Assembly: GCA_963662655.2 (NCBI GenBank)
Contig: CAXXTU010000002.1
Location: 1,792,001-1,856,000, forward strand
Length of the DNA: 64,000 nucleotides
Origin: Candidatus Cloacimonadales bacterium
Lineage (GTDB): Bacteria > Cloacimonadota > Cloacimonadia > Cloacimonadales > JAIOQZ01
Direction: 5' to 3'
The notes below the pieces were generated by a model that saw nothing but the letters and a program-made list of their open reading frames with translations, was not told the DNA's origin and ran no database searches. Position 1 is the first letter of the stretch. Each line of letters opens with the position of its first letter. Below, in pieces: positions 10,393-56,717 of the stretch. Made by a program: the position numbers and the translations under genes.

Positions 10393-10574
10393 GCCTGGGG
10401 GCGCGGCGTGGGAAGCCCTGCGACCGCAGCAGCATGTTTGAATTGATCAAATTATTCGAACAAACATGCTGCTGCGGTCTTATCGGGGCTTCCCGTAACA
10501 CTGCTGGGCGGTTTCTTATTGGAAACCGCCCAGCAGTGTTACGTGTGCAAGGCACACACGCCGCGCCCCCGGGC
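10393..10574 (+). repeat. Four-way-junction palindromic element, copy 1
   Basis: P1 10393-10409/10558-10574; P2 gggaagccc..gggcttccc with an inner 19-bp perfect stem; P3 21-bp perfect stem 10495-10515/10522-10542; P4 gtgtgc-aag-gcacac. Confidence 0.85.
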
Positions 10575-10654
10575 TCGGTTGGTTGCTCGCCATCGAGTCG
10601 TGAATCTGTTTGACAGGAAAGCATCTCCGATAATCCTGACTGGAAGGAGACAGG

Positions 10655-11284
10655 ATGTCAGATACATTATACACGATCGAGAATGATCGCTCGCACGAGA
10701 TCAAGATTCAGCGATCGAGGTTTATCTGTTCCATGCGGCACGTAACCAGCCTGGAAGACGCGAAGGCGTTCATCTCGGAGATCGCAGCGCAACACAAGCA
10801 GGCAAATCACAACTGCTGGGCCTACGTCGTGGGCGATAACGGCGAACTCTTTCACGCGTCCGATGCGGGAGAACCTTCCGGCACAGCCGGCAAACCCATG
10901 CTGAATTCCCTGAAGCGGCACAACCTGACGAAGGTATCCGTCGTCGTTACACGCTATTTCGGCGGAATCAAACTGGGCATCCGCGGCTTGATCGAAGCTT
11001 ATACTCAAGCCGTTGAAGAATGCATCCAAACCCACCCGCTCAAGAAAATCTTGTACCTGCGCCATTTCAATATCGTTACAGATTACGGTTTCGCCGAGAC
11101 CCTGAAGCACCGAATCTCCGGTTTGAAAGGCAATGTCGCCGACGCCTCGTACACTGATAAGGTTACACTTACGGTGGATGTGGAAATGGACAATAGCCAG
11201 TCGCTCTTCGATTTCCTTACCGAATTGCAACAAAGCGGAACGCTGAAGTTTCACGAGATGGACCACGCCGAAGTCGAAGAATAA
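10655..11284 (+). CDS. yigZ: YigZ/IMPACT family protein
   Basis: SRFI, ANHNCWAY, SDAGEPSGTAGKPML, VTRYFGGIKLGIRGLIEAY. Confidence 0.93.
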   Translation: MSDTLYTIENDRSHEIKIQRSRFICSMRHVTSLEDAKAFISEIAAQHKQANHNCWAYVVGDNGELFHASDAGEPSGTAGKPMLNSLKRHNLTKVSVVVTRYFGGIKLGIRGLIEAYTQAVEECIQTHPLKKILYLRHFNIVTDYGFAETLKHRISGLKGNVADASYTDKVTLTVDVEMDNSQSLFDFLTELQQSGTLKFHEMDHAEVEE

Positions 11285-11505
11285 ATAGGAAACGCTATCA
11301 AACACATTTGCCACAGACGAGAAAATCATTGACATGGAAGCCAATCCTCAACATTATTCAATAATATGAAAAATCCGTTGCATATTAATGAATTACGCGC
11401 ATCATTAAGTAATCCAAATATGCTGCGGAACGCGTTTTGCATTATAATATATAGTAGCGGGATGGCATCGAGTCATCGCGCTTACGGGGAATGCAAACAG
11501 GAGAG

Positions 11506-12318
11506 ATGGAGGAAGAATTGTCATACCGGGTAGGATTCTTGCAGTTTAAGCCGGTTCATCATAAGCCCGATGAAAACCTGAGCTACATACAGAAACAGCT
11601 TTCCGGAGCGCCGGAAGCCGATCTGATCGTGTTGCCGGAACTGGCTACAACCGGCTACCTCTTCAAGGATCGAGCAGAGCTCGATGCGCTTGCGGAAGAT
11701 CCCTGCACCGGCTCGACTGCGGTTTTGCTCAAGAAGCTTTCCCAAGAGAAGAATACAAGCTATGTCATTGGCTTTGCGGAGAAAGCGACTAATGGACTCT
11801 ACAACTCGTCCATGCTCGTCAATCCCGACGGCAACATCTACCTCTATCGCAAAATACACCTGTTCGATGATGAGAAAAGAGTGTTCGATTCCGGAGACTT
11901 GGGCTTTCCGGTGTACGAAGCAAAAAACGGCATCAAAGTCGGGCTGATGATCTGCTTCGACTGGATATTCCCCGAATCTGCACGAACCCTCGCCCTCAAA
12001 GGCGCGCAGATACTCTGCCATTCTGTTAACCTGGTTCTACCATGGTGCCAGCAGGCAATGCTGACAAGGACGCTGGAGAACGGCGTTTTCGCCATCACTG
12101 CCAACCGTTTCGGCAGGGAGACTTACGCAGGTAGCGACCTGACATTCACCGGCCAGTCACAGATCGTCACGAACAAAGGGGCGATTGCTTATCGGGCCTC
12201 CGAGCAAACTGATGAGATCGTCATCCGTCAGATCGAGCCGGAAGAGGCTTTGAATAAAATGATTACGGGCAGAAATCATCTGCTCGATGACAGACGTCCA
12301 GATATGTACAAAAAATAG
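11506..12318 (+). CDS. Carbon-nitrogen hydrolase (nitrilase superfamily); start uncertain (11491/11506/11518)
   Basis: Catalytic Glu-Lys-Cys triad: LPEL, YRKIHLF, MICFDWIFPE. Confidence 0.93.
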   Translation: MEEELSYRVGFLQFKPVHHKPDENLSYIQKQLSGAPEADLIVLPELATTGYLFKDRAELDALAEDPCTGSTAVLLKKLSQEKNTSYVIGFAEKATNGLYNSSMLVNPDGNIYLYRKIHLFDDEKRVFDSGDLGFPVYEAKNGIKVGLMICFDWIFPESARTLALKGAQILCHSVNLVLPWCQQAMLTRTLENGVFAITANRFGRETYAGSDLTFTGQSQIVTNKGAIAYRASEQTDEIVIRQIEPEEALNKMITGRNHLLDDRRPDMYKK

Positions 12319-12362
12319 AAGTAATAAAAACGAACAGTAAAGAATCACAAGGAGAGAAACTC

Positions 12363-15300
12363 ATGCGAAATCTGTTACTTACAATAGTACTGGTTTTGAC
12401 CGTATTTTCGCTGGCAGCCAAATCGGTTGACTTCAGTGCGACCGTCAATAACCCACCGATCGAACGAAGCGGAAATCCGGCTTCGGACGCAAACTTCGTA
12501 ATGGCGGAAACTGGCGAACCCATGCTTCCCTTCGAGAGCTACAACCTGGTTCTTCCTTACGGAACCTCGGTTGACGACATCGTCGTCGAACTCACCGATT
12601 ACACCGTTCTTGGTGGAGAATGGGACATTCCTCATGTCAACGCTCCATCCCGTACCGGCGCCCCCGTTTTCGAAACACCACGCAACGAAGCGATCTACAG
12701 ATCGAATGCCCCTTACCCGGCAAACGATTTCGAACTCGTGACCGTTCAGCGTCTTGCAGGTATCGACATCGCTGTCATCAACGTTTATCCTTACAAGTAT
12801 TCACCGGCATCCAAGGAACTTGGATACTATCGGAATATCGATATCCATATCGATGCCCAGGACGACAACTCGGTCCGCGAAGAACAAAATCGTAAGATTT
12901 GCAAGTCCGAAAGCGTCATGAAGCGCATTAATATCCTTACCGCTAATCCTGAAAACGTTTCAACCTATCCAAACTACAACACACCGAATCACGAGAGAAA
13001 CCTGGTTGATCCTAACGATCCATACCAGTACATTATCGTTTGTGGCGCGGCCTACGTTGACCTCTTCGAGGACTATGCCGATTGGAAGGGCGAACACGGT
13101 GTAACCGCGGGTGTTTTCACAATCGAATCGATCTATACCGAGTACTCCGGTACCCAGCAGGGCAAGCTTCGTGCTTTCATTACCGATGCCTATGAAAACT
13201 GGGCAAACTCTTCAACTCCTCTCGAATACGTGCTTCTCGCCGGCGATGACGAAATCATCCCGATTCGTGGGGTATGGGGTCACGTAAACGAGACCGACAA
13301 CTCAATCCCCTGCGACATGTACTACGGCTGTCTCGACGGTACCTGGAACGCCGATAACGATCAGATTTACGGCGAAACAAGCGATAACGCGGACCTTTAC
13401 GCCGAAGTGCACATCGGACGATATCCTGGCGACACCATGGAAGACTTCGAAAACATGATCTTCAAGACAATCCAGTATGTTGACTTCCCAGCGGCCTCCA
13501 TCGACAAGTGTACGCTCGTCGGTGAGCAGCTTGACGATTACCCGACATACGGTGGCGACTACAAAGATGAAATCGCGAACAGCACAACCATGCTTCCTTC
13601 GTACTATAACGTCTCTACCTTCTATGAAAGGGACGGGACCTTCGATACCGGCGACCTGATCGATCATATCAACGATGATCAAGCTGGCTTGATGAACCAC
13701 ATGGGACACTGCGACTACAATTATGCGATGAGCCTCACACCTGCTCAAATCCAGAATCTTCATAACACCGAATATCCATTCGTCTACTCTCAAGGCTGCT
13801 ACGCGCTCGCGTTCGATCAGCAAACCAGTGGCGACGTGGAATGTATCGGCGAAAACATGCTTTTCAACGATGCCGGCTGGTTCGCTTTCTGCGGTAACAC
13901 CCGTTACGGCTGGTATGCAAACGGAAGCACCAACGGTGCATCACAGCAGTTCGACAAGAAGTACTTCCAGTCACTGTTCTACAACGAAATTCGCGAAATG
14001 TCCGCGGCCCTCGCAAACTCGAAAGAGCAGCTTGTGGCTTACGTCAATTCCGGTAGCGGAACCTATCGCTGGGTCTACTACGAAATGGTTCTCTTCGGCG
14101 ATCCGGAAGTGGCAATCTACAACGGCGAAGGCAACATGCCCGACCTCGACATCTTCTATCAGCAAGTGCTTGAATATGGCGGAGACGGCGACGGCATCCT
14201 CAATCCCGGCGAGCAAGCCCAGGTTGTCATCATGTTGATCAACAACCCGGGAACCGGCGTTGCAGCAAATTCATCCGCAACCCTGGTTACCGATAACGAA
14301 TATGTCGAAATCATCGACGGTCATCGTGATTTCGGTAGCCTCGCTGCCGGCGCAACAGCTGACAACTACAGCTCACCGTTTATCATCCAGCTTTCGGAAG
14401 ACTGCCCGGTTGGCGAAATCAACTTCACCGTTGAACTCAGCGCCAACGCAGGTTCCGAAACTTACTTCGTGAAGCAATACGCGCTCACGGCGACCAGTCT
14501 GCTTTACTACCCGAACTTCCCATTCACAACGCAGACTTCCGTATACTCGTCACCGATCGTGGCGGACGTCGATGCCGACGGTAACGAAGAAATCGTTTCC
14601 GCCGACGCATCTGGCAATATCTATGCCCTCAGATCAAACGGCAACAACATCAGCGGATTCCCTGTGGCAACCGGTTCCAATATCAGAACCAACGTCGCTA
14701 TGGGTAACCTCGACGCGGACGAGCAGCTTGAGATTGCCTCCATCTCGTTCGATCACATCCTTACGATCGTGGACAACGATGGAACCATCATGTATCAGAA
14801 TTCAGATTACCAGGTGTTCATGAATTCTCCGACCATCGCCGACATCGCCGGTGACGCAAGAGAAGAAGTGATCTTCGGTAACATGAACCATTACCTTTAC
14901 GCTCTCGATGCTACCGGCACTCCGGTGACCAACTTCCCGGTCGAGCTACCGGACAGGATCCTTGGCGGCGCGGCAGTCGGCGATGTTGACAGCGACGGAC
15001 AGAAGGAAATCGTTGTGGGATGTTTCAACGGCAACCTTTACATCGTTGAATCCGACGGAAGCTACCGCAGCGTGACTCTCAGCGGTCAATTCTCGACCAC
15101 TCCGCTGATTTTCGGAAGCGGCAAGATCGCTATCGGCAGCAGCGACAGTCATGTCTACATTATCGAATCGGATGCCGTCGTGCAGGATATTACTCTCGAC
15201 GCGAAAGTATCGAAAGGGATCATCGCTGCCGATTTCGACGGTGACGACGATTACGAGCTTGCATTCTCGCTCGAGAATGGCACAACATACATCATGGAAG

Positions 15301-15977
15301 ACGACGGTACGGTCTTCAACGGCTGGCCTATTGACCTCGGCGCGGGTGTCGATGGAACCCCGGTTGCCGGAGATATTGACGGCGACGGAATGATCGACCT
15401 GCTCGTTCTGAACTCGGAAGGTACGATCCAGGGCAAGAACATCAGCGGCGAAGACCTTCAAAACTTCCCGATCGGCTACGGGATCCCGACCCAGAGCTCT
15501 GTAAGCATCTGTAATGTCGATCGCAACGCTTCCGCTGAACTTGCTGCCGGAACCAACACCGGCGTTTCTCTGTGGGATATCAAGTTGAACTGCGGCGATC
15601 TGAACGTGTGGCCGTACCTTTACGGAGACATCGGTCGTACATCCTGTACCCAGACCATCGTAGCGAACGACGACGATACCGTTCCCGAAGTGATTACTTC
15701 GCTGACGGGCAACTATCCGAATCCGTTCAATCCCGAAACCACAATCAAATTCTCGATCTCAGATCAAGACAGCAAGCAGCCTGTAAGTCTCAAGATTTAC
15801 AACATCAAGGGCCAGCTTGTGAAGACGATCGTGAACGAAAAACTCGCTACGGGCGAGCATTTCCTGACCTGGCAGGGTAACAGCGATACCGGTAAATCGG
15901 TTGCATCCGGTATTTACTTCTATCGCCTCACCACATCGTCATCCAGCCAGAACCGCAAAATGCTCCTGCTGAAATAA
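12363..15977 (+). CDS. Secreted C25 (gingipain-like) cysteine peptidase with FG-GAP repeats and FlgD-Ig/T9SS-like C-terminal domain
   Basis: Signal peptide, propeptide (GEPMLP), YVLLAGD, catalytic NHMGH and SQGC, LFGDP, several DxDxDG repeats, GNYPNPFNPET...SGIYFYRL...KMLLLK. Confidence 0.9.
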   Translation: MRNLLLTIVLVLTVFSLAAKSVDFSATVNNPPIERSGNPASDANFVMAETGEPMLPFESYNLVLPYGTSVDDIVVELTDYTVLGGEWDIPHVNAPSRTGAPVFETPRNEAIYRSNAPYPANDFELVTVQRLAGIDIAVINVYPYKYSPASKELGYYRNIDIHIDAQDDNSVREEQNRKICKSESVMKRINILTANPENVSTYPNYNTPNHERNLVDPNDPYQYIIVCGAAYVDLFEDYADWKGEHGVTAGVFTIESIYTEYSGTQQGKLRAFITDAYENWANSSTPLEYVLLAGDDEIIPIRGVWGHVNETDNSIPCDMYYGCLDGTWNADNDQIYGETSDNADLYAEVHIGRYPGDTMEDFENMIFKTIQYVDFPAASIDKCTLVGEQLDDYPTYGGDYKDEIANSTTMLPSYYNVSTFYERDGTFDTGDLIDHINDDQAGLMNHMGHCDYNYAMSLTPAQIQNLHNTEYPFVYSQGCYALAFDQQTSGDVECIGENMLFNDAGWFAFCGNTRYGWYANGSTNGASQQFDKKYFQSLFYNEIREMSAALANSKEQLVAYVNSGSGTYRWVYYEMVLFGDPEVAIYNGEGNMPDLDIFYQQVLEYGGDGDGILNPGEQAQVVIMLINNPGTGVAANSSATLVTDNEYVEIIDGHRDFGSLAAGATADNYSSPFIIQLSEDCPVGEINFTVELSANAGSETYFVKQYALTATSLLYYPNFPFTTQTSVYSSPIVADVDADGNEEIVSADASGNIYALRSNGNNISGFPVATGSNIRTNVAMGNLDADEQLEIASISFDHILTIVDNDGTIMYQNSDYQVFMNSPTIADIAGDAREEVIFGNMNHYLYALDATGTPVTNFPVELPDRILGGAAVGDVDSDGQKEIVVGCFNGNLYIVESDGSYRSVTLSGQFSTTPLIFGSGKIAIGSSDSHVYIIESDAVVQDITLDAKVSKGIIAADFDGDDDYELAFSLENGTTYIMEDDGTVFNGWPIDLGAGVDGTPVAGDIDGDGMIDLLVLNSEGTIQGKNISGEDLQNFPIGYGIPTQSSVSICNVDRNASAELAAGTNTGVSLWDIKLNCGDLNVWPYLYGDIGRTSCTQTIVANDDDTVPEVITSLTGNYPNPFNPETTIKFSISDQDSKQPVSLKIYNIKGQLVKTIVNEKLATGEHFLTWQGNSDTGKSVASGIYFYRLTTSSSSQNRKMLLLK

Positions 15978-15995
15978 TTAGCTTTCAAGCAAACG

Positions 15996-16032
15996 AAAAA
16001 CGCCCAATCGTCGATTGGGCGTTTTTCTTTTT
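15996..16032 (+). terminator. Intrinsic terminator after the C25 peptidase
   Basis: aaaaacgcccaatcg-t-cgattgggcgttttt followed by ctttttt. Confidence 0.85.
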
Positions 16033-16059
16033 ACGAGGTACAAGCTTCAGGTTGTGTGC

Positions 16060-16223
16060 CCACCAGCGCGGCGGGGCGGCGTTGGAAGCCTGGCATGTGC
16101 AAGTCATTATCTGATTCGGGAACTTTGCGCTGAATGGAGTCTTGAGAACGCTGGTCGACCGGCTTCCTGATCGATGTACATCGATCGTGCGCGAAGCGCA
16201 CACGCCGCCCCGCCGCGCGGTGG
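16060..16223 (+). repeat. Four-way-junction palindromic element, copy 2
   Basis: P1 gcgcggcggggcggcgt/acgccgccccgccgcgc; P2 ggaagcc (16084-16090)..ggcttcc (16161-16167); P3 gatcgatgtacatcgatc; P4 gtgcgc-gaa-gcgcac. Confidence 0.85.
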
Positions 16224-16284
16224 ATCGACGGTTGGAAGTAGAAGCACGTTAGCGGAAAGAGATGGATGAACGGGGTATGGTGAA

Positions 16285-17262
16285 CTAAAGGATCGCCTGG
16301 TTCATCTTCTCGATGAACGCGATGGTTTGAACGAAATCCTCGGGCAGTGGAGCCTTCAAGAGAAGTCTTTCGCCGGTGATCGGATGTTCAAAGGCGAGCG
16401 AGGACGAATGAAGCGCCTGACGCTGCATGTGATTCGCAACGAGGTATTTCATGCGTTTCTGGAGATTCAGCGGCAACATACTCAGCTCGCGTTTGAGCGT
16501 CGAGTAAGTCCGATCCCCCAGAACAGGGTAGCCGATGTGTGAAAGGTGTACTCTTATCTGATGGGTTCTTCCGGTCAGGATGCAGACGTCCAGCAAACCA
16601 AAGTATTCGAGATCCTTCTCGATACGGAAGATGCTGATCGCATCCTTTCCGCCTTCGACAACACTCATCTTCTTGCGATCCGAACCGCTCCTGGCGATTC
16701 CCGTACGGATTTCGTTGTCCAGGTCCCGAGGTAAACCCACCGTCAACGCCAGGTAATGCTTCTCGATCTTCCGCTCCTGAAAAATGCGCGATAGCAGCGA
16801 ATGCGTCCTGTCGTCCCTGGCCACGAGAATGATCCCACTGGTGTCCTTGTCCAGCCGGTGAACGATTCCCGGGCGGGTCGGGTCCGACCCGGTAGAAAGC
16901 GTTCCCGAAAAGTGGTGCATCAGAGCGTTAACGAGCGTGCCGTTCCAGTTACCCGGTGCGGGATGAACCGTCATACCAACCGGCTTATTCACGGCGATCA
17001 AATAGGGGTCTTCGTAGACGATGTCGAGAGGAATCACTTCCGCCTTAACCTTGCTCGATTCCGGCTCGGGAATGCTCAACTCGATCTCGTCTCCCTCTTC
17101 AACCAGATAGCTCTTTTTCACGGGCTGCCCGTTGACGAGCGCTTCGCCATTCTTGATCAATCGATCGATAAACGAACGGGAATAGAGTTCGTCGAGCTGT
17201 AAGTCACTCAGGTACTTGTCGATACGAGGCCTTGAAGAAATATCGCAGAGAATCTTCATCAT
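16285..17262 (-). CDS. rluD: RluA/RluD-family 23S rRNA pseudouridine synthase
   Basis: N-terminal S4-like domain, NKPVGMTVHP, catalytic GIVHRLDKDTSG, TGRTHQIRVH. Confidence 0.92.
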   Translation of the reverse strand: MMKILCDISSRPRIDKYLSDLQLDELYSRSFIDRLIKNGEALVNGQPVKKSYLVEEGDEIELSIPEPESSKVKAEVIPLDIVYEDPYLIAVNKPVGMTVHPAPGNWNGTLVNALMHHFSGTLSTGSDPTRPGIVHRLDKDTSGIILVARDDRTHSLLSRIFQERKIEKHYLALTVGLPRDLDNEIRTGIARSGSDRKKMSVVEGGKDAISIFRIEKDLEYFGLLDVCILTGRTHQIRVHLSHIGYPVLGDRTYSTLKRELSMLPLNLQKRMKYLVANHMQRQALHSSSLAFEHPITGERLLLKAPLPEDFVQTIAFIEKMNQAIL

Positions 17263-18071
17263 TCGTCGGAATCTTTACCTTTCTCGCCTTTCTTGCGATC
17301 GATATTGAACACGCCCAGAACAACACCGATAGGCATTCCACCCACATCGCGTACCATGCTGCTCTTGAGCGTGATATGTCGCTTCAACGATGGTATGAAA
17401 TACTGCTGTGAGGGCTGAACGCTTCGATTCTGCAAGATCGGGAGCGCATACTTGACGATGCTGTTGTTCACCTCCGGCTGGAAGCTCGAATCGAAGAGAT
17501 TGAGGTTCTCCGCAAGAAGCGGGAACACATCATTCAGGTTGTCGCTGAGGAACTTGATGTCTCCATCGATATCGATGACGATGAATCCGTTCTCAGACAG
17601 CTTCAAAATGCTCAGAATGCGGTTCATGTGCTCGATGATCTTCTCTTTCTTCGCTTGATCGAAATGAACGACCGAATTGAGCATCTTCTTGACCTGAAGG
17701 ATCAATTCCATCACGTCTTCATCGTTGCGACCGCTCAGCTCGGTTTCGTCGATATCGAGATTGTAGTTACCTCGCGTAATCTCCTTTAGTAGCTTGTTGA
17801 CATCCGTGAACCCACGATGGAGAAACACGGGAACGTAAAAGAAGAAGATAATCGCGACCAGAAATTGCAAGAACAGGAATATCCACAAAATATTGCCGAT
17901 GTCCTTCTTCATCAGTTCCGCGCGCTCCCTTAGCATGGTCGCATCGTCCATCGATCCCATCGCGCCCTTGTGAGTCGCCATGGTGAACCAGATAACAACA
18001 CCCTGCGCTGCCGTCAGCAGAAGCAACAGAATGATGAAATAGCGTATCTTGCGAGTAATGAAGTATTTCAT
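17259..18071 (-). CDS. Membrane protein with two TM helices, HAMP-like and PAS-like segments, no output domain
   Basis: Two hydrophobic stretches; KEITRGNYN...EDVMEL HAMP-like; SENGFIVIDIDGDIKFLS...GMPIGVVLGVFNI PAS-like; protein ends soon after. Confidence 0.65.
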   Translation of the reverse strand: MKYFITRKIRYFIILLLLLTAAQGVVIWFTMATHKGAMGSMDDATMLRERAELMKKDIGNILWIFLFLQFLVAIIFFFYVPVFLHRGFTDVNKLLKEITRGNYNLDIDETELSGRNDEDVMELILQVKKMLNSVVHFDQAKKEKIIEHMNRILSILKLSENGFIVIDIDGDIKFLSDNLNDVFPLLAENLNLFDSSFQPEVNNSIVKYALPILQNRSVQPSQQYFIPSLKRHITLKSSMVRDVGGMPIGVVLGVFNIDRKKGEKGKDSDE

Positions 18072-18075
18072 AGGA

Positions 18076-18774
18076 TCAATCCTGCATCGTTTCCTTGATG
18101 ATTTCGTTGATTCTCGGCTCGGGCCCCAGAAGGACAAGCTGATCGCCTTCCTTTATCACGTCGTTTGCTCCGGGAAGATCGTTGATACGCTTCTCGAGCT
18201 TGTTCTCGCCATCCTCCGAAACCGTGAGATGATCGTACTTGATCGCGACAATGTGAACGCCCTTGCTCGCTGGCAAGGCAAGCTCCTGAAGCGTCTTGCC
18301 CACGTAACTGTCCGGCACGGAGATTTCCACTATCGAGTGCCCGGTGGCGAGGTTGTAGTAGCGTATCACATTGCGAGAGAGCAGAGAATGCGCCAGTTCG
18401 AGCCCAATCTGCTCCTCGGGAAAAACAATGTGCTTCACGCCGATGAGTTCGAGAATCCTCGCGTGGAGCTTGCTATCGACTTTCGCGTGTATGTTTGCCG
18501 CACCCAGCTTGGTGAGAATAACGCTGGTGAGAACGCTGACCTCGATATTGTTACCGATCGCCAGGATCACGGCGTCCATGTCGTCCACACCCACCTGCTT
18601 AAGCGCTTGTTCGTCCGTGCTGTCCATGCAAATGGCAGCCGTAACGCTGTTCTTTATCTCGTCGATCAATTTCTGATCCGAATCGATGACCGTTACCTCC
18701 GCGCCGTTCTTGAACAGCGTCGACGACACGGTCATACCGAATTTACCCATTCCAATAACCAGGAACTTAGCCAT
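18076..18774 (-). CDS. trkA: TrkA/KtrA potassium uptake regulatory subunit
   Basis: VIGMGKFG Rossmann (RCK_N), IVFPEEQIG, RCK_C domain. Confidence 0.92.
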   Translation of the reverse strand: MAKFLVIGMGKFGMTVSSTLFKNGAEVTVIDSDQKLIDEIKNSVTAAICMDSTDEQALKQVGVDDMDAVILAIGNNIEVSVLTSVILTKLGAANIHAKVDSKLHARILELIGVKHIVFPEEQIGLELAHSLLSRNVIRYYNLATGHSIVEISVPDSYVGKTLQELALPASKGVHIVAIKYDHLTVSEDGENKLEKRINDLPGANDVIKEGDQLVLLGPEPRINEIIKETMQD

Positions 18775-18786
18775 ATAGACTCCTCA

Positions 18787-20718
18787 TTATCCTATTGAAA
18801 TTTTCTCGACTGTATATGCAAGCGTTTTTTTCGTTTTGGATTGAGTCAGAGCGAAGATCAATGTGAGAGGCCCCACCCTCCCGAGGTACATAAGCAAGAT
18901 GATGATGATCTTTCCGCCAATCGTGAGATCCGCAGTAATGCCCATGGAAAGCCCCACCGTGCCGAAGGCGGAAAAGGCTTCGAAAACAACCTTCCGGAAC
19001 GATTTCTGTTCGCTCCACTGATATTGCGTATCCACTTTTTCATACTGGGCCAAGCGCTGCGGTTCACGCACAATCACCGAATCGGAGATTGCGGCAACCG
19101 AAAGACTTTCCGCAGGAACCATCTCGGCAGGAATCGCCGTTTCCCAAGTCTTTCGTGTTTCGCTTACAACAATCGATTTCGGTGGCGTTGTCTCGAAAAA
19201 AAGGAGCAGGAAGATCATGATCGAGATAAATCCGATCGAAGTGGCGATGAGGGCCAGCACCCGTTTGAGCATCTCGTCCGAGATACGCCGTTTGAATATG
19301 GAAACCCCTTCCCCGCCTTTGATAATGGCAAGAACGGATAGAATAATGATTGCGAAGGTTGTCGTTTTCACGCCGCCACCGGTAGATCCAGGGGACGCAC
19401 CGATGAACATGAGCAGGTTGGTGATGAACACCGAGGAATTACTAAGCTGCGCGTTATCGATTGTGTTGAACCCGGCTGTTCTGGTCGTAACCGACTGGAA
19501 CATCGAGGCAAGTAAGCGCTCCAGGAACGAGAAATCTCGCATGGTGTGATTGTATTCCGATATGAAAAACGCCACAAAGCCGATCAGAATCAAGCAGACT
19601 GTCATAAGCAGAACAAGCTTGGTATGAAGGGTCAATCTCCCCGGATTGTATCGTTGGACTACGTTTCTTCGTAAATCGACCAGTACCGAGAATCCTATAC
19701 CGCCCACAATAATGAGGAACATGGTAATCAGGTTCACCCCAAGCGAACTCTTGAACTGGACCAGGCTGTCGCTGAACAGGCTGAATCCCGCGTTGCAGAA
19801 TGCGGAGATCGAGTGGAATACCGCGTAGTATCCGGCACTGCCGGTGACCAATGGATGTCTGCGGAACATGAAGTAGTAAACCGCTGCCCCGCCCATCTCG
19901 AAGAGCATTGTCACCAGGAAGATATCCTTGATCAGCGTGAGCATATCCAGCCGGTTCGATTCCCCCATCACATCTTTCATCACGTTTTCGCTGCGTTGGG
20001 TGAGTTTTTCACCGAGTAAAATTGCAAAGGCAGTCGATATCGTCATAATTCCCAGGCCGCCGATCTGGATCAGAATCAGGATGATGATCTGCCCGAAGGA
20101 TGTGAAGTATGAACCGGTGTCCTGCACGATGAGGCCGGTTACACAGGTGGCGGATGTCGCTGTGAAAAGTGCGTCGAGGTACGGCGTATCGCTATGGTGG
20201 TTGCTGGATACCGCCCACGGCAACGAAAGCAGGAACGAACCCAGGATAATCACAACGAAGAAGCTGAGCAGGAAAAACACCGGCGGATTCGCGGAAAGTT
20301 TACGGAATATTTTCTCGTTGTAACTAACGTATGCCAGTCCTTTCACGATCATATACGTTTGCCGGCCGATCAGGTAGAGGCTGAAGAACTGGTAGCCTTT
20401 GAATTTCGTAACGATCAACGCCGCAACGATCATCAGATCGATCAGCATCGAGCGAATACGTATCGGCGAGAATCCAATCCCGATCAGCCTTACAGCCATG
20501 AAGCCCACGAAATAGAGCATGGAAGAAACGGAAATGACTCGCGAGAAGAGGAAGAAGGTCTTGTCGTCCGAGAAGTGATAGCTCAGTAGCAGCATCGCCA
20601 GGCTTACAAGCGCAAAGCCATGCAACATCCACTGCATGGTGGATGACAATCTGCCGAAGAAATTGATGAAGCTGCGATATAGCGATTCCGCAGTCTTTGT
20701 CGCTTTGTTTTTACTCAT
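18787..20718 (-). CDS. trkH: TrkH/KtrB potassium uptake membrane subunit with N-terminal TM extension
   Basis: Pore-loop motifs SATCVTGL, SAFCNAGF, RTAGFN, SPGSTGGGVKTTT, SAFGTVGLS. Confidence 0.93.
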   Translation of the reverse strand: MSKNKATKTAESLYRSFINFFGRLSSTMQWMLHGFALVSLAMLLLSYHFSDDKTFFLFSRVISVSSMLYFVGFMAVRLIGIGFSPIRIRSMLIDLMIVAALIVTKFKGYQFFSLYLIGRQTYMIVKGLAYVSYNEKIFRKLSANPPVFFLLSFFVVIILGSFLLSLPWAVSSNHHSDTPYLDALFTATSATCVTGLIVQDTGSYFTSFGQIIILILIQIGGLGIMTISTAFAILLGEKLTQRSENVMKDVMGESNRLDMLTLIKDIFLVTMLFEMGGAAVYYFMFRRHPLVTGSAGYYAVFHSISAFCNAGFSLFSDSLVQFKSSLGVNLITMFLIIVGGIGFSVLVDLRRNVVQRYNPGRLTLHTKLVLLMTVCLILIGFVAFFISEYNHTMRDFSFLERLLASMFQSVTTRTAGFNTIDNAQLSNSSVFITNLLMFIGASPGSTGGGVKTTTFAIIILSVLAIIKGGEGVSIFKRRISDEMLKRVLALIATSIGFISIMIFLLLFFETTPPKSIVVSETRKTWETAIPAEMVPAESLSVAAISDSVIVREPQRLAQYEKVDTQYQWSEQKSFRKVVFEAFSAFGTVGLSMGITADLTIGGKIIIILLMYLGRVGPLTLIFALTQSKTKKTLAYTVEKISIG

Positions 20719-21363
20719 TCAGGATAAGTTGATGTGACGTTCGTTTAGAACCCTCACGACCTCTCTGTGAATTACATCGGGTTTCTGGTCGGCGTCGATG
20801 GTTCGTAGTTTGCCCTGGTTGCGGAAATACTCGATCGCCAGATCGGTTTGTTTATGGAAATCATTTATTCGCTTCTGAATCGCCTCTTCGTTGTCGTCGC
20901 TACGCATGACGAGTTTTCCGCCACAGTGATCGCAGATTCCTTCCTGCTTCGGTTTGCGGAAAAGCACGTTGAAATCGGAGTGGCAGTTGACACATATACG
21001 CCGAGCAAGGAGCCGTTCCATCGATTTCTCGTCCGAAAGCACGAACAGAATCGCCAGATCGATGGGATAGTGCTCGTTCAGGAATTCGGCTTGCGCCATA
21101 TTGCGCGGAAAACCGTCGAGAACAAACCCCTTCGGGCATGCAGCCATTTTCTTATCGATAACATCAAAAACGATTTCATCCGGCACCAGCAGTCCGTTTT
21201 CGATGAAGTACTTCACTTTCATGCCGGTTTCCGTATCGTGCTTGATATGCCAGCGAAACTCGTTTCCAACGTTGATATGGAAAAGCTCGAAGCGCTCTTG
21301 CATCAACTCGGCCTGGGTTCCCTTACCACTTCCCTGGATACCCATAAATACCAGATCGACCAT
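20719..21363 (-). CDS. adk: Adenylate kinase (Zn-lid type)
   Basis: GIQGSGKGTQA, LVPD, LDGFPRN, CxxC...CxxC lid, RSDD. Confidence 0.93.
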   Translation of the reverse strand: MVDLVFMGIQGSGKGTQAELMQERFELFHINVGNEFRWHIKHDTETGMKVKYFIENGLLVPDEIVFDVIDKKMAACPKGFVLDGFPRNMAQAEFLNEHYPIDLAILFVLSDEKSMERLLARRICVNCHSDFNVLFRKPKQEGICDHCGGKLVMRSDDNEEAIQKRINDFHKQTDLAIEYFRNQGKLRTIDADQKPDVIHREVVRVLNERHINLS

Positions 21364-21550
21364 GGATCCTCCCTTGAAAGATTCACATGAACTTTCTCAA
21401 AGTGTAATTTGATGACATTCGGATAATAAGTCAAGTTTTCTGAGCGAATATACAGAATATATCCCTGAGCGACAATGTTTCCACTGCTTGAATATACTTG
21501 TTTTCCCTCCAACTTCTCAAGCCAGTTCGAAGCCCCGGAGAGGGCGCGGA

Positions 21551-21671
21551 TTCCCGCGCCGGGGGGCGGCGCCGCAAGCCCGTATGGGCTTGCGGCCTGC
21601 TTTTGAAATGCCTTCAGCAAGGCATTTCAAAAGCAGGTTAGTGCGCTACGCGCACGCGCCGCCCCCGGCGC
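21551..21671 (+). repeat. Four-way-junction palindromic element, copy 3
   Basis: ttccc then P1 gcgccggggggcggcgc/gcgccgcccccggcgc; P2 cgcaagccc-gtat-gggcttgcg; P3 19-bp perfect stem cctgcttttgaaatgcctt; P4 gtgcgc-tac-gcgcac. Confidence 0.85.
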
Positions 21672-21790
21672 TGAGCTGGGCACCAATCTTCCTATTCCCT
21701 TACTCCGCGAGCAGAGAAAAGATAAGAAAAAAACTGCTTGCCATGAGCACTGTTTGCCGAAATACTATCCTCAAGCACACGGAGGTAAGA

Positions 21791-22213
21791 ATGGAAAGTC
21801 AAATCATCGAGTCGACCCACATCCTGCGGTTGGACCCGGGGGAAGAGATCGTGACGTCTCTCATTGACTATTGCGAGGAGCAGGGAATCCAAAGCGGACT
21901 CGTTACGGCAATCGGCGCGGTTAACGATGTGACGATCGGGCTCTTCGATCCAGATACAAAGGAGTACGCTTCGGAGCGGAAGAAGGGTAACTTCGAGATC
22001 GTCGCCCTCACGGGCAATATCGCGACCAAGGACGGCGAGGTCTACGCTCATCTGCATATCGGTTTTGGCGACGACCAACATGCTATGTACGGCGGTCACC
22101 TGAATCAAGCTTTCGTCAGCGCAACCTGCGAAATCTACCTTCTGGCATTGAAGGACAAGGTTGAGCGTTTCTACAGCAGTGAAATCGGTTTGAATCTGCT
22201 AAAACTCAAATAA
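21791..22213 (+). CDS. PPC/DUF296 domain putative DNA-binding protein
   Basis: RLDPGEE, AIGA, EIVALTGN, HLHIG...GGHL...TCEI; GGAGGT upstream of ATG 21791. Confidence 0.9.
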   Translation: MESQIIESTHILRLDPGEEIVTSLIDYCEEQGIQSGLVTAIGAVNDVTIGLFDPDTKEYASERKKGNFEIVALTGNIATKDGEVYAHLHIGFGDDQHAMYGGHLNQAFVSATCEIYLLALKDKVERFYSSEIGLNLLKLK

Positions 22214-22222
22214 GGAAATCAC

Positions 22223-22417
22223 ATGAAAAAAGACTGGAAGAATCTTCTTATCGGCTTCCTGGGAGCCTGCCTCCTCTTCGCGCTCATCGGAAGCAGCCAG
22301 GGTGGAAACACGGGCAAGTACCAGGTTTCCGCCGTTCAAACAAAGCAATACCCCGCCTACATCATTATCGACACTGAAACCGGAGACATCGTCAAGACAG
22401 GATATTTCGGGAATTAG
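22223..22417 (+). CDS. Small exported/membrane-anchored hypothetical protein (64 aa)
   Basis: AAGGA upstream; hydrophobic N-terminus; GKYQ...IDTETG. Confidence 0.65.
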   Translation: MKKDWKNLLIGFLGACLLFALIGSSQGGNTGKYQVSAVQTKQYPAYIIIDTETGDIVKTGYFGN

Positions 22418-22426
22418 GCCAATCCC

Positions 22427-24751: not shown

Positions 24752-24880
24752 GGACGCGAGCAGATTGGTTCGATCCTCTCTTCAGCGTGGTGCTTCACAG
24801 CGTAGTGTTCAATTTCCAATTCCTTACGGAGCTGTGGTATATCCACGGTGAAGAGAGGATCGGGCGAAGATGCCGCGTCC
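24752..24880. other. Long imperfect hairpin between convergent genes
   Basis: Nested pairs ggacgcg/cgcgtcc, cgatcctctcttca/tgaagagaggatcg (14 bp), cgtgg/ccacg, cacagc/gctgtg. Confidence 0.6.
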
Positions 24881-53605: not shown

Positions 53606-54930
53606 TCATACTTTCCCTTCCCTTTCTAAGCGGCAATTTCCTGAAAAACTATGCAAGCAATATCGGCAGCCGGTACGACTACATCGAGTACCGGCTGGAC
53701 ATGAATAAAGATCCACTGTCCGTGCCGGATGACCTCTTGAACGACCGATGTATCCTTACCTATCGAGGGACGCCGGTACCGAGGATCGCGCTCTGGATAC
53801 GAAAGCAGATTCTACAATACAAGTGTCTGACTGACATGGATATCGAAGCGTATGAGGAGATGGTGACGCCCATTCCGCCACAGAATCTCATCCTTTCACA
53901 CCACGATAACCGGCCCGACTGGAAAATCGAGGAGATTCGTACGATCGTCAAGCGATCGAACGCGATGAAGTCACGCATCCTGAAGCTGGCTCTCAGGATC
54001 GAGCGATACGAGCAGCTTCTTGCCATTCCGGAGTTGATCAAGCTCTCCAAGAAGCCGGTGCTGTTCGTCGGCCTCGGGCCTTTGGGGCATGTAACCCGCA
54101 TTCTGTATTTCGCGCTCGATTCCATCGGAACTTACGTAGGGCTCGATGGCTATCTCACCGCGGAGGGGCAACTCTCCCACACACAAGCAGAGCTGTATCG
54201 GATACGCAATCATCGCTGCGTACCTGGAGGGATCGTCGGCGGAAAGCAGGTGCTGCAATCGCGAGGGATTCCGTTCTACAATGAGTACTTCCAGAAGAAC
54301 GATATTGACGCAGTCTACATCCCATTCCCCGCAGGAGAATTACAGGATTTTCTCTCATGGATCGATCAGAGCGGACTGAAGTTCTACGGCTTCTCCGTGA
54401 CCATGCCGTTCAAGGAGCATTTTGCACCGGGAAATCTGCCTGCCGGAAATACCGTTTCATTCGGAAGAAAGGGTAAAGAGACTTTCTGTACCGATCTGGA
54501 CGCCTTCGAGAGATCGATCGAAGCCCTTGAGATTGAACCGGACGAGACAATCGTGATTTACGGTTCCGGGGCTACGGCTGAACTCGCGCTCCACGCGTTG
54601 AAGGATTACCCAAGTGTGACAATATGCGGCAGAAACCTTCAGAAGACTCAAGCGCTGGCGAGCAAATACGGCAGGAAATCCTCAGATACCATTCCCGGCG
54701 CCGATGTACTGATCAACTGCACCCCTGCGGGAGCCGGGATGAATCCCCTTCCGGAGTTTCCGGACACCGTACGGAAAATCATCGATCTCCCCTATTCATC
54801 GCAGGCAACGCGCCTCATGCGTTTCGCGCAAGAGAGGAAGCTTCCTTACATCGATGGCGTGCAATTCTGGAAGTGGCAGGCAAAGAGACAGCTCGATATA
54901 TTTCTTGCATCCATGGAGGAGAATCGATAA
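53602..54930 (+). CDS. Type I 3-dehydroquinate dehydratase fused to shikimate dehydrogenase (AroD-AroE)
   Basis: IEYRLD, ILTYR, LSHH, LKLA, TAEGQ; then SVTMPFKE, NT, TD, GSGATA, INCTP.G, DLPY. Confidence 0.82.
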   Translation: MIILSLPFLSGNFLKNYASNIGSRYDYIEYRLDMNKDPLSVPDDLLNDRCILTYRGTPVPRIALWIRKQILQYKCLTDMDIEAYEEMVTPIPPQNLILSHHDNRPDWKIEEIRTIVKRSNAMKSRILKLALRIERYEQLLAIPELIKLSKKPVLFVGLGPLGHVTRILYFALDSIGTYVGLDGYLTAEGQLSHTQAELYRIRNHRCVPGGIVGGKQVLQSRGIPFYNEYFQKNDIDAVYIPFPAGELQDFLSWIDQSGLKFYGFSVTMPFKEHFAPGNLPAGNTVSFGRKGKETFCTDLDAFERSIEALEIEPDETIVIYGSGATAELALHALKDYPSVTICGRNLQKTQALASKYGRKSSDTIPGADVLINCTPAGAGMNPLPEFPDTVRKIIDLPYSSQATRLMRFAQERKLPYIDGVQFWKWQAKRQLDIFLASMEENR

Positions 54931-55653
54931 ATGAAGAAGCTTATACTCTTATTGGTCATCGTCTCCGCCCTAGCTTTACAAGCGGCAGAGACCGGCAGAT
55001 TCCGGTTCGGCGCGGTGATGGACCCGATGCTCGATCCTACGACCATCGACTCGCTTTTTGCTGAGAGTGACAGCCTTGATCAGATACTATTCGCGGGAAA
55101 AATTGTCAAACCGAGCTTTTTGCCGGACAGCATGTTTGCCCGAGATTCGCTGATCGTAGCGACTGCTACGCAATACGGAGCGTTGTTGTATCCCGTCGGC
55201 TACTCGTTTTCTCCCGAGCTTCCAGCCTATTCGACCTCGATGGTTCGTTGCGGGAATGTTTCCGCTTATGACAATGTTGATATTTTCCATGTGGGAAATA
55301 CAAAAATACGCCTATTCTCGCTCTACACACCGGACACAATCGTGAAACACAAAATCGTTGAACCTTCGCGGTTCCAGTACGATCTGCCGGGTCTTGCGGA
55401 GAAGGCATTCGCGGAGAAAGACTCAGCCTGCTTCGACATCCTGGTAACGAACCTGCCCAAGCATGTCATCAAGAAGCTTTTCGATTCGCCACCTGCGGAT
55501 GCAATCATCTGCTTCGACTACGTTCCGACGAAAAACGAGAAGCTCTTCGATAATCGCACCGCCTTTTACAGTCTTGCCGGCAATCCCAAAGGGATTTTGA
55601 CCGTCTTTGCAGAAAGCGGTGAAATCCGGCTCGAGTGGAGCAAGAGGAAGTAG
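54931..55653 (+). CDS. Hypothetical exported protein
   Basis: GGAGG upstream; signal peptide; lies in-operon between aroDE and xerC. Confidence 0.7.
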   Translation: MKKLILLLVIVSALALQAAETGRFRFGAVMDPMLDPTTIDSLFAESDSLDQILFAGKIVKPSFLPDSMFARDSLIVATATQYGALLYPVGYSFSPELPAYSTSMVRCGNVSAYDNVDIFHVGNTKIRLFSLYTPDTIVKHKIVEPSRFQYDLPGLAEKAFAEKDSACFDILVTNLPKHVIKKLFDSPPADAIICFDYVPTKNEKLFDNRTAFYSLAGNPKGILTVFAESGEIRLEWSKRK

Positions 55654-55655
55654 GT

Positions 55656-56570
55656 ATGTCCCTCACGCTTTCCGAGGCGCGACAGCAATATTTGCGGAAC
55701 CTGAAGGCTCGTGCCCTCTCTGCGCACACCATCACCGCATACAGGAAGGATATCGAGCAGTTCGAGGAATTTCTCTCTCGATTCTTCGAGTCGGAAGGTA
55801 TTGCATTGAAAGAAATCACACGGCTCATGGTTCGCGACTTTTTGCGAAGCCTGAGCGAGAATGAGCGGTCCAACCGCACGCTGGCACGGAAGGTCACAAC
55901 AATCCGTGCATTCTTCAAGTACTGCGTTTCAAGCGAGCTCGTGGCGGAAAATCCTGTCGCAGGCATGCCGACACCGAAGTTTGGCAAGAAGCTGCCGAAG
56001 TATTTCACGGAAGAAGAGATTCGCAAGCTGCTGGAACTACCCGATCTGACAACGAAATTCGGGATTCGGAACCGCGCGATTCTGGAGCTCCTGTATTCCT
56101 GCGGAATGCGTATCAGTGAGATAGCCAACGCGCGTATCGGGCAGCTTGATCTGCGCCGTGAAATGATTCGTATCATCGGTAAGGGGAACAAAGAGCGGAT
56201 CGTGCCGCTGGGGCAATGGGCTTGCGCTTCTCTGAGAAGCTACCTCAAGGCGCGCGTTCGATTCGAATCGGAGGAGAGCGCGGACTTCCTGTTCCTGTCC
56301 AAGAGCGGAAAGCCTCTCACACCTGACGAGCTGCGGGAAATACTCGATCGCTATATTATTCTGGTCGCAGATACGAAAGGCTATTCCCCACACTCCATCC
56401 GGCATTCGTTCGCAACGCATCTGCTTTCGCACGGCGCGGACCTCAAGGCCGTCCAGGAAATGCTCGGCCACAGCAATCTTTCTACGACCGAAGTCTATAC
56501 CCACCTCACCATCGAAGACCTGCAAAAAGAATATCTGCAAGCACACCCAAGAAGCAAGAAAGAAGACTAG
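55656..56570 (+). CDS. xerC: XerC/XerD-type tyrosine recombinase
   Basis: HTITAY..D, LYSCGMRISE, GKGNKER, PHSIRHSFATHLL, LGH..LSTTEVYTH, HPR. Confidence 0.85.
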   Translation: MSLTLSEARQQYLRNLKARALSAHTITAYRKDIEQFEEFLSRFFESEGIALKEITRLMVRDFLRSLSENERSNRTLARKVTTIRAFFKYCVSSELVAENPVAGMPTPKFGKKLPKYFTEEEIRKLLELPDLTTKFGIRNRAILELLYSCGMRISEIANARIGQLDLRREMIRIIGKGNKERIVPLGQWACASLRSYLKARVRFESEESADFLFLSKSGKPLTPDELREILDRYIILVADTKGYSPHSIRHSFATHLLSHGADLKAVQEMLGHSNLSTTEVYTHLTIEDLQKEYLQAHPRSKKED

Positions 56571-56597
56571 TCCCCTCCGAGATTTACACCCGACGCA

Positions 56598-56717
56598 GCG
56601 CGGGGGCGGCGTGTGCGCTTTGCGCACGATTCATTGCCTTGCGCTTTTGGCGTGATTGAAAAGCGCAAGGCAATGAATCAGGAAGCCTTCGGCTTCCACG
56701 CCGCCCCCGCGCGGGAA
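56598..56717 (-). repeat. Four-way-junction palindromic element, copy 4 (inverted relative to copies 1-3)
   Basis: Minus strand: ttccc-gcgcgggggcggcgt-ggaagcc gaa ggcttcc-t-21-bp perfect stem gattcattgccttgcgctttt-gtgcgc aaa gcgcac-acgccgcccccgcgc. Confidence 0.85.

Follow-up and report, generated by a model that had tools for sequence, protein, structure and literature searches.

A branched intergenic repeat, predicted to fold as a four-way junction, is dispersed through the genome of a Candidatus Cloacimonadales bacterium (G000), in which we identified 76 complete copies of 100-200 bases each, compared to a single match in each of the three congeners (G001-G003) that were the closest relatives used for comparison. 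We favor, with a probability of about 0.6, the explanation that this repeat is a small, parasitic, non-autonomous mobile DNA element, with a trans-acting enzyme copying it in its folded single-stranded form. The difference in copy number, the element-free orthologous sites, and the likeness of sister copies, which runs from one P1 arm to the other, all support behavior of this kind, and the best reading is that the repeat resembles REPIN and bcr1 in behavior but is a member of neither.

Four copies in the analyzed window

The window, that is, the entire 64,000-nucleotide stretch of G000 that was analyzed, contains four copies (Table 1), and a covariance model scan of the window returned exactly these four places. 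The positions, strands, and P1-P2-P3-P4 order of the original prediction were confirmed, all the core variants that it had listed are present, and the contexts are two divergent and two convergent gene pairs, as claimed. The variable stems were also correctly described as free of G-T pairs, with P3 consisting of 21, 19, and 21 Watson-Crick pairs in copies 1, 3, and 4, respectively. Two points require revision. The copies in the window fall into two length classes, and the claim that P3 is unrelated between copies holds in the window but not genome-wide, where sister copies have P3 in common. The sister of copy 2, at C2:3139659 of G000, lies between unrelated flanks. Copy 4 has no unpaired bases at the junction and lies 28 nt beyond the stop codon of the XerC/D-type gene. 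None of 200 shuffled sequences folded as well as copy 1 (z = -19.1, RNA parameters), and the same holds for copy 2 (z = -6.2, DNA parameters; 0 of 200).

Independent Logan contigs were compared with the region of copies 1-3, copy 4 being outside it, and showed 0 differences to window positions 6000-16185 and 16191-23689, which argues against an assembly artefact for copies 1 and 3 and for most of copy 2; the sample is possibly the source of the window itself.

Table 1. Copies of the four-way-junction repeat in the window, with the arms of copy 1 and the neighboring genes
Feature	Positions	Strand	Class and arms	Neighboring genes	Basis
Copy 1	10393-10574	+	long P2	ECF sigma / UPF0029 gene, divergent	covariance model, 90.6 bits, outside training set
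Copy 1, P1a	10393-10409	+			sequence reading
Copy 1, P2	10410-10494	+	85 nt		sequence reading
Copy 1, P3	10495-10542	+	hairpin, 21 bp		sequence reading
Copy 1, P4	10543-10557	+			sequence reading
Copy 1, P1b	10558-10574	+			sequence reading
Copy 2	16060-16223	+	long P2 (85 nt), short P3 (7 bp)	C25 peptidase / pseudouridine synthase, convergent	83.1 bits, outside training set
Copy 3	21551-21671	+	short P2, P3 19 bp	adk / PCC-domain gene, divergent	covariance model and sequence reading
Copy 4	56598-56717	-	short P2, P3 21 bp	XerC/D-type recombinase / T9SS-type protein, convergent	covariance model and sequence reading

Genomic and phyletic distribution

The genome-wide scan proposed with the original prediction recovered many further copies in G000 (completeness 98.95%), and a relaxed core pattern matched this genome 88 times, compared to 5 times in its reversed version. 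The copies look randomly spaced (CV 0.98) and are split 37:36 between the strands across the replichores of C2, that is, without replichore bias. They show some traits of REP/REPIN sequences, being extragenic and multicopy, with conserved ends and an inner stem that is conserved in length and compensated. Another orphan repeat family in G000 is rod-shaped and has no junction, and its replichore bias is strong (26:87).

The family expands in bursts in single species and is otherwise rare. The short-form pattern was detected in 2 of 40 relatives and the covariance model hit 2 of 60, the scans of genome collections being sensitive to the short-P2 form alone. The same P1/P4 core and fold were identified in five gut Clostridia MAGs, where the pattern matched 21-68 times per genome; of 151 genomes in the Clostridia family, 3 are expanded. 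Together with G000, these five carriers make up the six expanded genomes considered below. One pattern had 0 matches in IMG/VR and a looser one had 8, none of which folds like the element; PLSDB yielded no match to the element pattern. Rfam had 0 matches in the window at the gathering threshold, and across 11 loci the elements were overlapped by sub-threshold matches only, mostly to miRNA hairpins. No description of the family was found in the main text of open-access papers, and the supplements of large RNA-motif or repeat surveys may contain one.

Empty sites, sister copies, and flanks

For 16 copies, both flanking genes could be located in the 51% of G001 that was analyzed (2.0 Mb), in which the relaxed core pattern had no match. 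Five of the 16 gene pairs are still adjacent in G001, and the element is absent at all five: four of the spacers measure 169, 47, 53, and 215 nt in G001 versus 270, 258, 346, and 381 nt in G000, respectively, and the fifth G001 spacer contains other DNA. The reverse case was found as well, with a copy adjoining a queD-like gene in G001 and G003 and a 198-nt spacer lacking a copy in G000. Hence the empty orthologous sites sought by the original prediction exist in both directions, although the congeners are too divergent for the insertion boundaries to be fixed.

Five pairs of sister copies are 81-91% alike over the P1-to-P1 core and at most ~20 nt beyond it. The G002 copy and the G000 copy at C1:115435 are 90.8% identical over 120 nt, compared to about 75% for orthologous genes, and their flanks are unrelated. 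Target duplications, in contrast to empty sites, did not materialize: direct repeats between the two flanks of a copy reach 4-8 nt at the longest and do not exceed those of cross-pair controls. About 20 nt of the flanks retain a weak consensus that is roughly palindromic and may reflect either the preferred target or an outer portion of the element that has decayed; the core-only likeness of sisters could therefore stem from gene conversion instead of transposition. G000 yielded no flank palindromes without an element, and no excised or empty allele was seen among the Logan contig joints listed, contigs being prone to drop rare variants. The pair at C2:2159049/2239179, examined as a candidate fresh insertion, proved to be a segmental duplication beside ISL3-like elements.

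The copies are enriched at breaks of synteny (5 syntenic and 11 broken, versus 93 and 54 for element-free spacers; p = 0.016), also after stratification by gene orientation (OR 0.31, p = 0.027).

Structural constraints on the arms

Arm statistics were derived from 72 parsed copies (71 in some tests), and the alignment mixing both strands was left out of the pair counts. Sequence conservation is confined to the junction-near parts of P1, P2, and P4, in contrast to strict pairing, which extends through all four arms. The 13-bp P1 arms match perfectly within a copy in 55 of 72 cases, compared to 5% across copies; 71 copies carry 37 different versions of P1, still matched within each copy, and its insertions and deletions are mirrored on both arms. 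P4 is perfect in 70 of 72 copies, in a search that tolerated at most one P4 mismatch, and comes in 8 sequence versions. The covariation score, 0.450, is well above those of shuffled (0.157) and slid (at most 0.184) alignments. Lengths are conserved too: P3 spans about 47 nt, long P2 has a typical length of about 89 nt and falls within 80-95 nt in 37 of 39 copies, and a short P3 was found only together with a long P2 (8 of 39 copies, versus 0 of the 33 with short P2). The claim that structure is maintained while sequence varies is thereby substantiated. The arms vary independently of one another (Spearman 0.06 for P2-P3, -0.06 for P1-P3, and 0.03 for flank-P3), and the copies are mosaics of modules, with internal loops in the long-P2 arm. 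The requirements readable from the 72 copies are the junction-proximal bases, the P4 triloop, and at least one long arm.

Several features favor a DNA-level element, as originally predicted. In P3, 9 G·T and 12 A·C mismatches stand against 1,239 Watson-Crick pairs; P4 ends in a triloop in 68 of 72 copies, with GNA in 53 and TNC in 5; and the junction has at most one unpaired base in 57 of 72 copies and none in 35. GNA triloops confer unusual stability on DNA hairpins, and the fold is about equally strong for both strands of the element. These signs point to the repeat acting as DNA rather than RNA.

Search for a candidate mobilizing enzyme

The Y1 transposase domain (PF01797) is absent from G000 (best E 0.38; tblastn with the congener Y1 proteins, best E 0.17 or worse) and from all five Clostridia carriers, which are fragmented MAGs, so that 0 of 6 expanded genomes have it. 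A six-frame scan for the HUH motif gave one match that is not transposase-like. TnpB (PF07282) was found in 0 of 9 genomes and Y2 (PF04986) likewise in 0 of 9, with control genomes also lacking a Y2 match. G000 has no IS110 (PF02371), and its one reverse transcriptase gene (PF00078) is interrupted by a stop codon and located 11 kb from the nearest element; none was detected in genomes G061-G066. Absences in the Clostridia carry little weight because these MAGs break at elements, so that a gene flanked by copies could be lost in binning. Within 12 nt of P1, in 71 copies, GTAG occurs 1 and 0 times and GGAG 0 and 0 times on the two strands, and CGTC 4 and 5 times. The proteins flanking the Clostridia copies have no mobile-element gene in common, and the genes between closely spaced copies are ordinary.

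Three other candidates were considered and rejected. A guide-RNA role is not indicated, as the long-P2 interior and P3 match their own flanks no better than chance (for an IS110-type guide in the long-P2 interior, 7.90 nt versus 7.87 nt for other flanks); none of 15 CRISPR-like spacers matches a copy over more than 11 nt, the best value; and a Xer/dif link is not indicated, as the XerC/D-type neighbor of copy 4 is present in G001 without the element and the dif-like site near the terminus is AT-rich and does not resemble it. The PF00589 matches comprise two genes of XerC/D type, three integrases located in a prophage-like region, and a single fragment.

The original interpretation therefore holds for the maintained structure, the independence of context, the DNA level, the mobile-like behavior, and the lack of an Rfam family, but its HUH/RAYT link found no support in the carriers, given the missing Y1 genes, the missing GTAG/GGAG tag, and the even replichore distribution. 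A HUH/Y1-type transposase, since lost or transiently supplied, is nevertheless the single most likely enzyme and carries about half of the weight of our explanation; we count in its favor the 3, 3, and 7 Y1 matches in the three congeners and the replichore bias of the rod family, and against it the location of the congener Y1 genes far from the single element copies there.

Under the favored reading, the P1-bounded core would be the unit moved or gene-converted, with the enzyme reading the junction-proximal bases and arm lengths of the single-stranded fold. Arms would be exchanged between copies, and copies would come to lie in permissive spacers, frequently close to the 3' ends of genes, and may seed rearrangements.

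Alternative explanations

The strongest alternative, although an unlikely one, is a Holliday-junction mimic that has no enzyme of its own: junction-processing and repair proteins of the host would bind and cut the fold, and the products would integrate or convert copies. The geometry of the tight junctions, the failure to find a dedicated enzyme in six expanded genomes, the independent variation of arms, and the enrichment at synteny breaks fit this mechanism. However, host proteins of this kind are universal, whereas the family is seldom found and expands in bursts within individual species; conserved sequence at three arms suggests a partner that reads sequence; the junction-free rod family is similarly enriched at breaks (7 syntenic versus 61 not); the dif-like site near the terminus is unlike the element; and no precedent was found in open-access full text. 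A wider proposal, which we regard as doubtful, is an enzyme-less class of mobile DNA in which single-stranded junction mimics, using host proteins or an unrecognized junction-specific transposase, cross phyla, swap arms, and seed rearrangements.

An RNA-level element benefiting the host, as a 3'-UTR stabilizer, terminator aid, or trans-acting ncRNA, is quite unlikely. Location argues for it, with 24 of 76 copies in convergent spacers, versus 141 of 849 long spacers in G000, and genes ending on the P4 side of 85 of 105 Clostridia copies (median 83 nt) and in a ratio of 46:30 in G000, as do the internal loops of the long-P2 arm. Yet copies occupy all four gene orientations in G000, including 16 in divergent spacers, in line with the predicted independence from context; the two phyla differ in the strand, relative to the adjoining gene, that bears the stable GNA loop; G·T pairs are not in excess over A·C; the loops are triloops, not tetraloops; no Rfam family matches; and congeners lack copies at the same sites. 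The copy numbers, 76 versus 1, and the element-free orthologous sites speak against the trans-acting ncRNA that the original prediction had kept in play, which is therefore unlikely. The repeat may act at the RNA level at the 3' ends of genes.

We consider it very unlikely that the repeat is an ordinary MITE mobilized by a DDE transposase, its P1 serving as the terminal inverted repeat and its inner hairpins being incidental. P1 qualifies as such a repeat, sisters are alike from one P1 arm to the other, replichore bias is absent, and G000 has multicopy IS elements, but no target-site duplication was found, the many P1 versions are each matched within their copy, the inner arms are strongly constrained in structure, the ends of the 12 ISL3-like copies differ from P1, and G000 yielded neither an unpaired left end nor a gene-bearing copy. 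Least credible are old insertions, neither mobile nor functional at present, in which template switching and gene conversion during replication keep the arms perfect, a scenario consistent with the mosaic modules, the decayed flanks around a perfect core, and the mirrored P1 indels, but one that leaves the fixed arm lengths, the GNA strand bias, and the initial spread unexplained.

Comparison with known systems

This family is a clean test case for how small structured repeats spread in bacteria without a visible partner enzyme: a burst in a near-complete genome lacking Y1, IS110, TnpB, and an intact reverse transcriptase, in contrast to congeners that have Y1 genes and one copy each, with the junction core present in a second phylum. 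Should a junction-reading enzyme or host resolvases prove responsible, single-strand transposition would have gained a new route, and the element would be a natural DNA substrate with a four-way junction.

Integron attC sites are variable in sequence and recognized by structure as folded single strands. The repeat shares the variable sequence and, as proposed here, the reading of a folded single strand by structure, but is branched and dispersed where attC sites are rod-like and arrayed, and does not follow a cassette gene at a set position or in a set orientation. Non-autonomous IS200/IS605 derivatives are described as biased toward the lagging-strand template (PMC5027513), unlike the even strand split on C2, and TnpA and TnpB were not found in the carriers examined. 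Bacterial MITEs (Correia, RUP, ERIC), as outlined in a review (PMC3184786), are likewise non-coding, shorter than ~200 bp, stably folded, and bounded by a terminal inverted repeat; the junction repeat differs in having no target duplication, no matching IS end found in the carriers examined, and a constrained inner structure.

The bcr1 repeat of the Bacillus cereus group, compared by its description in the same review, is similarly dispersed at non-conserved locations, with a cruciform-like fold and compensatory changes (PMC3184786). The review leaves the mechanism open and describes bcr1 as flanked by 5-bp direct repeats, transcribed, and, at the RNA level, folded into two independent stem-loops. 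Judged against that description, the junction repeat has no duplication, three closed hairpins, arms of variable sequence, two length classes, and a distribution over two phyla.

Among the closest known systems are also REPIN/REP-RAYT systems, which are likewise non-autonomous, extragenic, randomly spread, and species-specific, with conserved ends, an inner part whose length and pairing are preserved, compensatory changes, and with a single-stranded DNA fold as the proposed substrate (PMC3116915, PMC3733652, PMC6006769). The same gap, a missing partner enzyme, is noted for CGTC-tagged REPs by Di Nocera et al. (PMC3733652). Compared to a REPIN, which is a doublet of one REP, the junction repeat is branched, with three unlike hairpins, and has no GTAG/GGAG tag, no replichore bias, and no RAYT in the expanded genomes or beside the congener copies. 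If a lost RAYT was nonetheless responsible, the known RAYT substrates would widen from hairpins to branched folds.

Confirmation and census of the junction elements

The four predicted elements were found in the window where and as described, adjoining genes that are indeed mutually unrelated, and a covariance model trained on 29 copies, mostly of the short form and excluding copies 1 and 2, matched only these four elements in the window. Against 200 dinucleotide shuffles each, the fold z-scores were -19.1 for copy 1 and -6.2 for copy 2. No Rfam match was found in the window, and a permissive Rfam scan of 11 loci yielded only sub-threshold matches over the elements. Logan contigs from one sample, possibly the source, are identical to copies 1 and 3 and to the greater part of copy 2.

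Further copies exist outside the window: two merged searches identified 76 complete copies in the window's genome, G000 (3.81 Mb, two contigs, 98.95% complete; the window is C2:1792001-1856000), along with two partnerless right halves. The relaxed core pattern had 88 matches in G000 versus 5 in the reversed genome. By our own gene calls, 24 copies lie in convergent, 16 in divergent, and 14 and 22 in tandem spacers; spacing along the genome is as if random (CV 0.98).

Table. Coordinates of the repeats and of neighboring features
Feature	Location	Strand	Remarks
Junction element, copy 1	window 10393-10574	+	
Junction element, copy 2	window 16060-16223	+	
Junction element, copy 3	window 21551-21671	+	
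Junction element, copy 4	window 56598-56717	-	
Second repeat family	window 24755-24877	+	dispersed across G000
XerC/D-type gene 3' end, then copy 4	window 55635-56717		
Two inverted second-family copies around one gene	G000:C2:834936-836463		427 aa; UmuC/DinB-type polymerase by appearance (judged by eye)
Reverse-transcriptase gene	L143:3050-4609 (G000:C2:981049-982608)		Abi/defence-type-looking; one internal stop codon
Prophage-like (possibly Mu-like) gene set, several near-identical copies	G000 C1:12000-25000; C2:1-10000; C2:476000-509000; C2:2.72-2.76 Mb; C2:3.29-3.32 Mb		
XerC/D-type gene, then REP-like hairpins, 137-aa Y1 gene, DinB-like gene	G001:C1:315000-317100 (L197)		
Insert splitting a Clostridia P3 arm	L186:2500-2900 (G064:C23)		~300 nt, non-coding; short inverted ends
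T-box leader matches, sub-threshold (~65 bits)	L041:1276-1457; L042:1411-1592		two Christensenella MAGs; 80-100 nt downstream of junction element

Anatomy of the element

Of the 76 copies, 72 could be parsed (the four failures include window copy 1). P1, the closing stem, ends in GGCG plus one base; P2 opens with a GAAGCC-like stem; and P4, a 6-bp hairpin, occurs in eight versions and pairs perfectly in 70 of the 72 copies, under a search that tolerated one mismatch. The arms abut closely: 35 junctions have no unpaired base, and 57 have no more than one. P2 length is bimodal with a gap between the classes: 16-33 nt in 33 copies and 65-95 nt in 39, 37 of the latter falling within 80-95 nt. P3 spans 42-52 nt in 31 of the 33 short-class copies, and short P3 arms (17-23 nt) are confined to copies with long P2 (8/39 versus 0/33), so that at least one long arm seems to be required. 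Among 68 P4 triloops, 53 are GNA and 5 the complementary TNC; in DNA hairpins, GNA triloops have exceptional stability.

Pairing is a property of the individual copy: the 13 pairs of P1 nearest the junction match perfectly within the copy in 55 of 72 cases, compared with 5% across copies. In the 29-sequence alignment, 84.9% of the cells pair versus 66.9% after shuffling, and the covariation score, calculated ignoring relatedness, is 0.450 versus 0.157 for shuffled and at most 0.184 for slid alignments. Over 68 copies, between-copy similarity of flank and P1 correlates at 0.24, and the other pairs among flank, P1, P2 and P3 lie within 0.07 of zero; because these similarities are nearly uncorrelated, the copies appear to be mosaics. 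The flanks share a weak, roughly palindromic consensus over ~20 nt, and no copy-specific pairing was found in them.

Evidence for probable mobility

With the exact pattern, 2 of 40 relatives proved to carry the element; with the covariance model, at least 2 of 60 genomes did (at most 55 candidates scored in each; the long G003 copy was missed). The three congeners, G001, G002 and G003, have one match each. G001 and G003 share a copy adjoining a queD-like gene, in the short form in one and the long form in the other; this site in G000 has no copy and a spacer of 198 nt, versus 425 and 483 nt in G001 and G003.

Synteny was compared over 2.0 Mb (51%) of G001 for the 73 G000 copies in qualifying spacers. 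Both flanking genes were located in this portion for 16 copies, one for 27 and neither for 30. Five of the 16 pairs are still adjacent, and the check for empty sites found the element absent from all five: four have a shorter spacer and one is occupied by other DNA, the sequences being too diverged for insertion boundaries to be fixed exactly. The remaining 11 pairs are apart in G001, an excess over the 54 of 147 for element-free spacers (p = 0.016; stratified, OR 0.31, p = 0.027); the same tendency is seen for the second repeat family.

G000 has five sister pairs whose likeness, 81-91%, is confined to the core; a sixth pair was rejected as a transposed copy, being a segmental duplication. The G002 copy shares 90.8% identity with one G000 copy, the two sites being unrelated. 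The contig holding the G002 copy is 38 kb long, also carries both second-family matches of G002 and, over 14 kb compared, has only slight DNA likeness to G000, which suggests an acquired island.

A second repeat family in G000

The second family consists of rod-shaped hairpins, ~110-170 nt long, in which the internal loops are conserved, G·A and T·G oppositions occur in tandem, and the variable stems covary. In G000, 117 right halves were counted, against 0 in the reversed control, and a left half accompanies 105 of them; the exact pattern gave 50 matches in G000, 2 in G002, 1 in G003 and none in the other 38 relatives. The copies are biased between replichores (origin set by GC skew and dnaA), with 26 leading and 87 lagging (p = 7e-9), as lagging-strand transposition predicts (PMC5027513). 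No Y1 gene to move this family was found in G000, which shows that the genome can hold orphan single-strand-type repeats without their enzyme and weakens the argument from enzyme absence. The junction family has no replichore bias (37:36), showing that, unlike the second family, it does not behave as a replichore-biased single-strand-type repeat.

Twelve ISL3-like copies are present on contig C2 of G000. In two of them an end is no more than 26 nt from a junction element, and in three an end is no more than 150 nt from a second-family repeat; immediately beyond a truncated ISL3-like copy there is a third junction element. The repeated prophage-like sets may explain the break between contigs C1 and C2.

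Probably related elements in gut Clostridia

A two-sided pattern that detects the short form only matched 82 GTDB genome stretches and 27 metagenome stretches. Among 111 matches, 74 combine a perfect P4 with a strong fold; two of these 74 are G001 and G002. L064, a Streptomyces record, and L127, which lacks a junction fold, were set aside as likely chance. The other 70, including some duplicates, belong to gut Clostridia by record title or sequence type: Christensenella sp., Ca. Pelethousia gallinarum, uncultured Clostridia and one Oscillospiraceae MAG. Six Clostridia genomes contain 29, 21, 29, 68, 44 and 1 cores (reversed controls, 0), and expanded genomes number 3 of 151 for the Clostridia family and 1 of 121 for the Christensenella variant.

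In the Clostridia copies, the stretch between the two pattern-imposed ends folds into a P2 and a P3 hairpin, both perfect, with few bases left over. The P2 of two Christensenella MAGs opens with GAAG, a start not demanded by the pattern, and the Cloacimonadales covariance model scores these two at up to E 3e-10. Judging by these sequence features, we read the elements of the two phyla as probably homologous, convergence of GC-rich junction repeats being possible. The Clostridia P4 loops are mostly pyrimidine-rich on the same strand (TTT 30, TNC 34, GNA 1; n=118). The right end of the insert in the P3 arm of L186 is also present in L165; its ends resemble IS1182-type repeats, and the arms may thus be landing sites for other elements.

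Enzyme search and possible mechanisms

The HUH/RAYT enzyme of the original prediction did not materialize: no Y1/RAYT gene was found in G000 or the Clostridia carriers. G000 also yielded no IS110 and no TnpB, and its one reverse transcriptase is interrupted. Neither RT nor TnpB was found in the Clostridia carriers, where absences carry little weight because these MAGs break at the elements. The congeners have 3, 3 and 7 Y1 matches, away from the single junction copies; among the flanks listed, RAYT-like Y1 genes (L196-L209) have short REP-like repeats of their own on either side, in some cases as tandem arrays.

The family has undergone a burst, is missing from empty sites, has sisters alike only over the core, and is constrained in structure and length. 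We favor, with a probability of about 0.6, a non-autonomous unit moved in trans as folded single-stranded DNA, about half of this weight resting on a lost or transient HUH/Y1 enzyme. The enzyme, acting in trans, would read the junction of a P1-bounded unit folded as single-stranded DNA; arms would be swapped between copies, and copies would survive in permissive spacers. That the family spreads by mimicking a junction, or by means of a new enzyme, is doubtful, and a Holliday-junction mimic using host proteins is unlikely. An RNA-level role, which we consider quite unlikely, accords with the finding that 85 of 105 Clostridia copies have a gene terminating at their P4 side (G000 leans similarly, 46:30), but the P3 stems together comprise 1,239 Watson-Crick pairs, and among their mismatches G·T (9) is no commoner than A·C (12), so that the wobble excess expected of an RNA is absent on either strand. 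A DDE MITE is very unlikely, given that the check for target duplication found none in the flanks, and inert converted relics are the least probable.

Comparison with known repeats

No description of the junction family was found in open-access full text; it is real and apparently not described before. The family is one of non-autonomous structured DNA repeats. REPINs, like the junction family, have conserved ends around an interior that keeps its length and shows compensatory changes (PMC3116915); the junction family differs from them in having no tag, RAYT or doublet form (PMC3733652, PMC6006769). Closest in shape is bcr1, which PMC3184786 describes as a cruciform-like fold with compensatory changes; bcr1, however, is bounded by 5-bp direct repeats, whereas the junction copies have no target duplication around them.
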